Below, piece after piece: positions 34,726-35,682 of a stretch of 64,000 nt of DNA (position 1 is the first letter of the stretch; each line of letters opens with the position of its first letter). The stretch lies in IMG/VR virus record IMGVR_UViG_3300044630_004720. One strand, written 5' to 3'. The position numbers were made by a program, and so were the translations under genes. The notes below the pieces were generated by a model. The model searched no databases. It saw only the letters and a program-made list of their open reading frames with translations, and was not told the DNA's origin. Source of the DNA: a virus (Duplodnaviria > Caudoviricetes).

Positions 34726-35682
34726 ATGAAGATATTAAAAGTTGGTTACAAGGTTTTCGATTTTTCGATACCTAAAGAACTCTATTACTACATCACTAAG
34801 GAGTATTATTTAAAAGAGCCAAAAATATTTGAATCCTTAAGGATAAGAAATGGTTCAGATAAAAAGAACGCAACTTATGTTGAGATTTTAAAAGGAGATA
34901 AAGAAAGCTTTTTTGATTTAACATCAAGTAGAAAAGAAGAATGGGATAACATTATCGATTTTCTTAATGAGAAATACGAAAATAAAATCCAAGAAGATAA
35001 AGAAGTTACTTTCGATGATGACAGTAAGAAAATAGACTTCTTTATTAAGTTAGGTAAAAGCTCAAATCCCAATACAATCCTCGGCAGGTTATTATATTTT
35101 AATCCTGTCAATGAAAATGGTGTTAGTGAATATGTAACCTTTGACCAAGTAAAGCAACACCCTGATTTTGGTAAATCTAAAAAAGACGATAGTTGTATCC
35201 CACACAATGGAACCGCTTGGAACAGGACTGTTGAGAAATATTTCAAACTAATTTTAGTAAAGGAAAAAGGAAAAAACGTAGGATTCCAATTCGATGGGTA
35301 TAATTTTGATTATTCCCATAAAAATCGTTACATTAGAAAGGATATCAGAAAAACATTAGAACACGGTAGATGTGCTCATTGTGGTGTGAAGGGTAAGAAG
35401 ATGGAGATTGACCATAAGAACGGTCGATATAATGATGAAATGGTATTAAATTCTGAAACACAAAACCTTTCTGATTTCCAACCATTGTGTGGCGGTTGTA
35501 ACAAACTTAAAAGAAGTGCTTGTAAAAAATGTAAGGAAACTGGACTTAGATACGACGCACAATACATAGGTTATCCTTTTTCACATTTAGAGGGTGATGC
35601 CGTCTATACTGAAGAATTAGGATGTAAAGGATGTTATCTATATGATAGTATGTATTGGAAGTTTAGTTGTACAAAAAATTAA
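34726..35682 (+). CDS. HNH-type restriction endonuclease homologue of NlaIII/IceA1 (CATG cutter) with an N-terminal extension
   Basis: Colinear family motifs recalled from IceA1/NlaIII: P.NENGVS, NGTAWNR, IRKDI, EIDHKNGR, DFQPL...N..KR..CKKCKET..RYDA, EGD..YTEELGC.GCY.YD. Confidence 0.8.
   Translation: MKILKVGYKVFDFSIPKELYYYITKEYYLKEPKIFESLRIRNGSDKKNATYVEILKGDKESFFDLTSSRKEEWDNIIDFLNEKYENKIQEDKEVTFDDDSKKIDFFIKLGKSSNPNTILGRLLYFNPVNENGVSEYVTFDQVKQHPDFGKSKKDDSCIPHNGTAWNRTVEKYFKLILVKEKGKNVGFQFDGYNFDYSHKNRYIRKDIRKTLEHGRCAHCGVKGKKMEIDHKNGRYNDEMVLNSETQNLSDFQPLCGGCNKLKRSACKKCKETGLRYDAQYIGYPFSHLEGDAVYTEELGCKGCYLYDSMYWKFSCTKN

Follow-up and report, generated by a model that had tools for sequence, protein, structure and literature searches.

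The 64,000-nucleotide stretch of viral DNA considered here (IMG/VR record IMGVR_UViG_3300044630_004720, Caudoviricetes), referred to below as the window, comes from a large phage of myovirus-like type that belongs to a jumbo-phage lineage. At positions 34726..35682 on the plus strand it carries a solitary gene for a 318-residue HNH restriction-type endonuclease of the NlaIII/IceA family (PF05315). NlaIII, the prototype of this family, cuts CATG. The original prediction had stated that no methyltransferase adjoins the gene, and this is the case: its neighbours, each across a gap of 3 nucleotides, are a gene for a conserved 103-residue membrane protein (34411..34722, plus strand), which is present in all relatives, and a gene of the SbcC/Rad50 type resembling T4 gp46 (35686..38022, plus strand). 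These two genes form the left and right borders of a slot whose content varies between related phages. The SbcC-like gene was recognised by a match to PHROG 77 (E 6e-51), by Pfam matches to the SbcC Walker B and Rad50 zinc hook families that fall below the cut-off, and by synteny. Its partner, an SbcD/Mre11 metallophosphoesterase gene resembling T4 gp47 (31897..32721, plus strand; Pfam Metallophos, E 7e-12), lies upstream in all relatives, and the nuclease gene is situated between the SbcD-like and SbcC-like genes.

The assignment of the nuclease draws on a Pfam match, identity to a Neisseria protein, the invariant columns of the family alignment and the substitution pattern of the gene. Residues 130–313 match the Pfam ICEA profile with 112.7 bits (E 2.5e-32; cut-off 24 bits), a sub-threshold match to Pfam HNH is also present, and PF05315 is carried by all 71 homologues found. 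Residues 122–314 are 39% identical (E 6e-37) to the whole of a 232-residue PF05315 protein of Neisseria lactamica, the source species of NlaIII, and in that bacterium the gene is followed by one for a 334-residue methylase of the D12 class. An alignment of about 35 sequences that includes the N. lactamica protein shows D229-H230-K231, N259, C216, C266, C269, C300 and C303 to be invariant and C255 to be nearly so, and 31 of 31 invariant columns of the PF05315 family are kept in the phage nuclease. The protein is therefore a solid member of the NlaIII/IceA family with intact catalytic residues, as the original prediction had read it from motifs alone. The family, which includes R.NlaIII and the IceA1/HpyI protein of Helicobacter pylori, corresponds to family 27 of the His-Me finger nucleases (PMC5714182). 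The phage protein has the same D-H, N and Cys motifs as R.NlaIII and IceA1 and presumably the same CATG target.

An AlphaFold model of the nuclease (mean predicted local distance difference test score, pLDDT, 79) divides into three parts. The catalytic HNH (His-Me finger) domain (35320..35679, plus strand) holds D229-H230, N259 and the cysteine ligands C216, C255, C266, C269, C300 and C303; its core, approximately residues 199–318, resembles the HNH domains of GVE2 and ZRANB3 as well as Cap5, McrA and T4 endonuclease VII at a middling level (VIA-align Z 4.7–5.8), and by Foldseek the HNH matches in the PDB are weak (E at least 0.26). Ahead of it lies a winged-helix-like domain of approximately residues 94–193 (35005..35304, plus strand), common to the bacterial family members, for which VIA-align gives similarly middling scores against ArsR, SmtB, MarR and TubR winged helices (Z 4.0–4.6); in the model this is probably the DNA-recognition part of the enzyme. 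Compared with the bacterial enzymes, which are 190–236 residues long, the phage protein has about 120 extra residues at its N-terminus, of which approximately residues 1–90 form a domain of their own (34726..34995, plus strand). This extension is restricted to phage proteins among the aligned family members, and fold and feature searches with residues 1–90 gave no match. No solved structure of a PF05315 relative came up when the PDB was searched by sequence, and the nuclease belongs to no PHROGs family. The phage nucleases form one clade with 97% support, far from the bacterial enzymes. Pairwise ratios of nonsynonymous to synonymous change (dN/dS) among the relatives are 0.03–0.10, at dS values from 0.18 to more than 1.5, and on this ground the gene is kept by selection.

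The window as a whole (1..64000) is a segment free of CATG, and self-immunity to a CATG-specific enzyme would be a property of this entire DNA. An exact count gives zero CATG on both strands, in agreement with the claim made earlier from reading the letters. Dinucleotide shuffles of the window lead one to expect 252 ± 17 over the two strands together; the figure is 180 from a second-order Markov model and 196 from base composition. When synonymous codons are shuffled within the 53 plus-strand genes (96% of the window), 95.9 ± 7.9 sites are expected and no shuffle falls below 74. The avoidance is visible in codon choice, again as predicted. Histidine ahead of a codon starting with G is encoded by CAC 54 times and never by CAT, and elsewhere by CAT 116 times and CAC 61 times. 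Codons of the form NCA are not used at any of 72 places ahead of TG and make up 54% of such codons elsewhere, and a C-ending codon precedes ATG in 0 of 287 cases. CATG is missing in every flanking context. One other word is empty, GATC, with zero occurrences against approximately 190 expected from the Markov model and 166 ± 9 from codon shuffles; a scan of words of 4–6 letters in the window and in a 160-kb relative found none purged apart from CATG and GATC. The window is also poor in CTAG (33/103), GCGC (5/22), GGCC (10/25) and CCAG/CTGG, all far from absent. In two larger relatives GACGTC is absent, with 14.5 expected on one strand in the 203-kb contig G002 and 9.7 on one strand in the 321-kb genome G004.

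To find a linked methyltransferase elsewhere we scanned 50 open reading frames of the window against Pfam or PHROGs. The only DNA methylase among them is a D12-class adenine methyltransferase at 49616–50452 on the plus strand (PF02086, E 1.7e-19, with a DPPY motif), 14 kb downstream of the nuclease. It is a core gene, 60–93% identical in relatives with or without the nuclease or CATG, and because it is equally a core gene of relatives that lack the nuclease it is not the partner of the latter. We rejected it as a distant cognate partner on this ground and also because a CATG methylase would make the purge of CATG needless. This adenine methyltransferase thus sits in a genome with neither GATC nor CATG.

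Related phage loci were gathered through both the nuclease and SbcC, the latter giving 58 IMG/VR loci. The nuclease stands alone in 12 distinct loci (the window, L001–3, L006, L104–106, L108 and L196–198), and all 12 have zero CATG against expectations of 5.5–180. The linked cognate methyltransferase of an orthodox Type II system, not found in the window, is present in four other loci (L004, L107, L109 and L195), where the nuclease is accompanied by an adjacent, overlapping N6/N4 methylase of PF01555; these loci have CATG at 16 of 55, 2 of 59, 11 of 40 and 26 of 55 expected occurrences respectively. The remaining 34 distinct loci have no nuclease, and their observed/expected ratios for CATG range from 0.17 to 0.81 with a median of 0.63 and none at zero. 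Zero CATG accordingly accompanies the solitary nuclease, and neither the nuclease with a methylase nor the absence of the nuclease. The idea of immunity through erasure of the site, which had been proposed for the window, thus came through the comparison: CATG is at zero where the enzyme is alone, the 34 nuclease-free loci are not equally depleted, and the methylase-bearing relatives keep sites. One of the solitary loci, L108 (12 kb), has a guanine plus cytosine content of 44% compared with about 32%, and is without CATG (31 expected) and without GATC (28 expected).

The same pattern is seen over longer distances. A 160-kb contig with the solitary gene has 0 CATG against 512 expected, despite saturating synonymous change, while a 203-kb contig without the nuclease has 345 of 627 expected and a complete 321-kb genome without it has 538 of 882. 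By profile search, PF05315 is absent from the 93%-complete and 100%-complete genomes that carry CATG, and nine contigs without the gene at the slot do not have it at any other place either. We rejected an artefact of assembly or library preparation, as zero CATG recurs in independent JGI, ENA and Logan assemblies and CATG is present in relatives from the same kinds of data. GATC varies independently of the nuclease. It is at zero in many nuclease-free relatives, including the 203-kb and the complete 321-kb relatives (846 expected in the last), and is likewise absent from the 160-kb contig; L197 has 0 of 11.7 expected CATG and 11 of 14.5 expected GATC. No gene of the DpnII or MutH families that might account for the loss of GATC was found in five GATC-free relatives.

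Between the 103-residue protein gene and SbcC lies anything from 19 to 2720 bp, according to the cassette that is present. The slot may be empty (19–26 bp), or hold the ICEA nuclease alone, the nuclease with one methylase or the nuclease with two methylases; other contents are a 156-residue protein with a different N6/N4 methylase, a 210-residue protein, and a family of 175–241 residues without a Pfam match. These varied contents make the position beside SbcCD look like an exchangeable nuclease slot. Patchy presence at a single intergenic slot, a feature of free-standing homing endonucleases, is seen for the nuclease across about 50 loci. The 175–241-residue family (L011:9447-10022, L017:9444-10019, L041:9390-9998, L016:9305-9985 and L019:9020-9745) occurs in relatives without the CATG nuclease and has invariant D..ExE..RK residues in an alignment. 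Its model (pLDDT 86) weakly resembles the PD-(D/E)xK nucleases DpnI, fusellovirus D212 and I-Ssp6803I (Foldseek E 0.005–0.03, probability >0.9). We rejected the notion that this family goes with a purged word of its own, as there is none in G005. In L035 the 156-residue protein (L035:8712-9182) is followed by an N6/N4 methylase (L035:9157-10008) that is 26–30% identical to the methylase of the CATG cassette, and the two may be another small restriction-modification pair. In L109 a second methylase, of the D12 class (L109:5839-6726), directly follows the nuclease and the N6/N4 methylase.

On a tree of SbcC the state of the slot changes six times. The phage L017/G005, which has a different, putative nuclease in its slot, is sister to L105 with 100% support and is nested within a clade of solitary-nuclease phages. 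It has CATG again, at 7 of 42 expected sites locally and 115 of 322 over 94 kb, and at its CATG positions the clade-mates differ by one base at the orthologous places; recombination mosaicism in G005 is an alternative source of these sites. Some CATG columns in SbcC are widely shared, being kept by nuclease-free and methylase-bearing phages and missing from the solitary-nuclease phages and L017, and these columns are apparently ancestral. Two distant lineages that bear the cassette have methylases with 76% identity to each other, and one carrier of the cassette, L195, has an SbcC 93% identical to that of nuclease-free phages, with the nuclease and SbcC trees in disagreement. When 80 bacterial NlaIII-family loci were searched by tblastn with the N6/N4 methylase of the phages, only six weak matches resulted; the bacterial partners belong to a different class, D12. 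Taken together, the return of CATG in L017/G005, the ancestral columns in SbcC and the identity of the cassette methylases favour a mobile cassette of nuclease plus methylase, then a purge of sites, then loss of the methylase.

We consider it likely that the window phage keeps an active, CATG-specific NlaIII/IceA-family HNH endonuclease without a cognate methyltransferase, and that the phage is immune as its genome has no CATG. Of this account we infer that the enzyme is active, which site it cleaves, what DNA it acts on and in what order the events took place. The series of events would begin with a mobile cassette of nuclease and N6/N4 methylase in the variable slot upstream of the SbcC/gp46-like gene; CATG sites would then have been purged from the phage DNA, and the methylase, useless after the purge, would have been lost. 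From then on any new CATG, whether arising by mutation or brought in with acquired DNA, would be a self-inflicted double-strand break, and the site-free state would be enforced by the enzyme itself because any new CATG would be cut. During infection the enzyme would cut unmethylated DNA that carries CATG, that is the host chromosome and/or co-infecting related phages, of which those represented by the 203-kb and 321-kb contigs carry hundreds of sites. By analogy with T4, the adjacent SbcCD-type nuclease would probably process the resulting fragments, in parallel to the action of endonuclease II/IV with gp46/47. The original prediction had the enzyme feeding the phage's own ribonucleotide reductase; this is loose, as degraded DNA yields deoxynucleoside monophosphates that are salvaged by kinases, and the SbcCD pair is the more telling neighbour.

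Tentatively, a more general route can be put forward, in which the cassette would enter an "armoury" slot beside SbcCD, approximately 500–900 sites would be purged and the methylase discarded, and this would have happened repeatedly. What results would be restriction that genuinely does without modification. The enzyme would at once attack host or rival DNA, police its own genome and block incoming DNA that carries CATG, and the orphan methylases of the slot would be counter-moves. To our knowledge an evolutionary route from cassette through purge to methylase loss has not been described before, and a literature search, which omitted most subscription journals, found no paper on a phage that carries a solitary 4-bp cutter and whose genome is free of the site.

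Several points weigh against reading the gene as an active CATG cutter to which its own genome has adapted. That CATG is the presumed cleavage site of the phage enzyme follows from homology and from the very pattern of avoidance. The count in the window covers 64 kb of this phage, with the larger-scale counts coming from relatives, and the relatives are metagenomic contigs that were mostly read over only about 20 kb. A Fisher test of nuclease state against CATG absence gives a raw p of 5e-9 that ignores relatedness; phylogenetically independent contrasts number only 3–4, all in the expected direction, and with so few a sign test cannot reach significance. Pieces of the nuclease gene occur at 97–100% identity in contigs of four metatranscriptome libraries, which is compatible with transcription but may also reflect carry-over of DNA. 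CATG is mildly depleted across the whole phage family, as the median ratio of 0.63 in the nuclease-free loci indicates. Lastly, GATC has fallen to zero in many relatives in which no phage GATC nuclease is recognised, so that a 4-letter word can be emptied by outside pressure in this phage family.

The last two points bear on the alternative that a CATG restriction system of the host, of a kind common in Bacteroidota and other bacteria, drove CATG out first, after which the nuclease was harmless to gain or keep and may be nearly neutral cargo. The complete 321-kb genome without GATC, in which no DpnII- or MutH-family gene was found, indicates that non-self pressures reach zero here, the family-wide depletion of CATG would fit such pressure, NlaIII-family proteins are known from 322 bacterial loci, a good many of which are Bacteroidales loci, and the avoidance of sites by phages is usually ascribed to host systems (PMC6286503). 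Set against this, zero CATG occurs in 0 of the 34 nuclease-free loci and in 12 of the 12 solitary-nuclease loci, the strong purifying selection on the gene is at odds with neutral cargo, and the nested relative that lacks the nuclease, L017/G005, has CATG again. Moreover, the phage nucleases are an old clade with an N-terminal domain of their own and not a recent capture from bacteria, and the orthologous methylases that partner the nuclease in two lineages far apart suggest that a restriction-modification cassette came first. We therefore regard this explanation, which had been raised together with the original prediction as an alternative in which the gene was captured later, as unlikely. 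Far less probable still is that the protein is not a CATG cutter here, having changed its specificity, become a nicking enzyme or taken on a non-nuclease role through its N-terminal domain, with the absence of CATG due to an unrelated cause. The 90 N-terminal residues are indeed new and unexplained, and identity to the prototype is only 39%; however, the catalytic residues and zinc ligands are invariant, the missing word is the prototype's own, its absence extends to all flanking contexts and is confined to phages in which the nuclease stands alone, and phages with the methylase partner tolerate CATG.

It is also possible, though we hold it to be somewhat doubtful, that the gene serves chiefly as a selfish mobile cassette or a weapon between phages, one that shreds co-infecting relatives without it and spreads by recombination in the conserved flanks, the degradation of host DNA being incidental. 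This would be compatible with self-immunity through the absence of CATG. The patchy distribution at one fixed slot of varying content, the six changes of state, the disagreement of the nuclease and SbcC trees at L195 and the 345–538 CATG sites of relatives would all suit such an element, and the restriction systems of marseilleviruses exclude rival viruses and do not degrade host DNA (PMC7253447). On the other hand, site-specific homing is beyond a 4-bp cutter, and the location between SbcD-like and SbcC-like genes fits a T4-style breakdown of host DNA. Chlorovirus enzymes, moreover, break down host DNA and are reported not to cause mutual exclusion (PMC7019647).

Among known systems, bacterial PF05315 enzymes differ from the phage protein in being shorter and in standing beside a D12-class N6-methyladenine methylase, whereas the partner found in related phages is of the N6/N4 class (PF01555). 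A parallel for the lack of a partner is PacI, whose site is an 8-bp word of A and T only, rare by chance in a GC-rich host. Solitary restriction genes have been catalogued, and PacI is cited as a solitary enzyme that is tolerated because its site does not occur in the host genome (PMC3488263, with reference to Shen et al. 2010). The phage enzyme resembles R.PacI of Pseudomonas alcaligenes in being an HNH enzyme without a methylase in a genome without sites, CATG being at zero both in the 64-kb window and in the 160-kb relative. It is unlike PacI in having a 4-bp site, of which approximately 500–900 would be expected per genome and which would have been removed by selection on codon choice. It is also unlike PacI in that the carrier is a virus, so that the enzyme would meet foreign DNA as an attacker and not as a defender.

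Chloroviruses and marseilleviruses likewise encode short-site enzymes directed against non-self DNA, and R.CviAII of the chlorovirus PBCV-1 also cuts CATG. These are eukaryotic viruses, whereas the present carrier is a bacteriophage, and they protect themselves by methylation, whereas the phage appears to have dropped the methylase and to rely on the absence of the site, with both states seen among its relatives. In chloroviruses the restriction enzymes degrade host chromatin, and the gene of a nuclease is "always adjacent" to that of its methylase (PMC7019647). For an offensive use of the chlorovirus type, marked by breakdown of host DNA early in infection and by packaging of the enzyme in the virion, only the position of the phage gene between SbcD-like and SbcC-like genes is suggestive. 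T4 breaks down host DNA with endonuclease II/IV and gp46/47, and discriminates by hydroxymethylcytosine in its own DNA. The phage would be like T4 in telling self from non-self by a property of its own DNA and in having an endonuclease beside a gp46/47-type exonuclease, but the property would be an absent sequence word instead of a base modification.

Free-standing homing endonucleases such as Seg and Mob, like the nuclease gene, occupy variable slots flanked by conserved genes. Their targets, however, are long and rare and lie near the insertion point, and they leave genome-wide composition unchanged, in contrast to what is proposed for the phage nuclease; the genome-wide purge of a 4-letter word points to a short, frequent target and not to a homing site. 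The loss of a palindrome through synonymous codons is as described for host-driven site avoidance (Rusinov et al. 2018, PMC6286503), but here the phage itself apparently supplies the selecting enzyme, no site at all is left, and among close relatives the loss comes and goes with the presence of a single gene.

If this reading is true, the phage would be a clear natural case of a virus that tells self from non-self by a missing 4-letter word and not by chemical marking of DNA, and one in which the intermediate states (no enzyme, enzyme with methylase, enzyme alone) all survive in close relatives. Restriction-site avoidance in phages could then be self-imposed and not only host-imposed, and genome-wide loss of a site could reveal the specificity and activity of uncharacterised phage nucleases. 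Such a system would also imply a built-in barrier to the acquisition of genes by these phages, and the swappable nuclease slot would be an arena of conflict between phages and between phage and host.

Elsewhere the window has genes for ribonucleotide reductase, baseplate wedge proteins, a primase-like protein, a ClpP-like prohead protease, a sigma factor, a NusG-like protein and thioredoxin; complete genomes of related phages measure about 320 kb. The INPHARED phage collection holds neither a DNA nor a protein match to this lineage, and at least 13 studies of lakes and fresh water have yielded metagenomes in which the stretch occurs. A UDP-glucose/GDP-mannose dehydrogenase gene (33114–34355, plus strand), itself free of CATG, has been inserted after the SbcD-like region and ahead of the 103-residue protein gene; among 22 relatives compared this insertion was found only in L001, the one member of the window's clade that was tested. 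Lastly, a 153-residue open reading frame among the structural genes (22458–22919, plus strand) contains a domain of the Hint/intein type (PT-HINT, E 4.5e-7).

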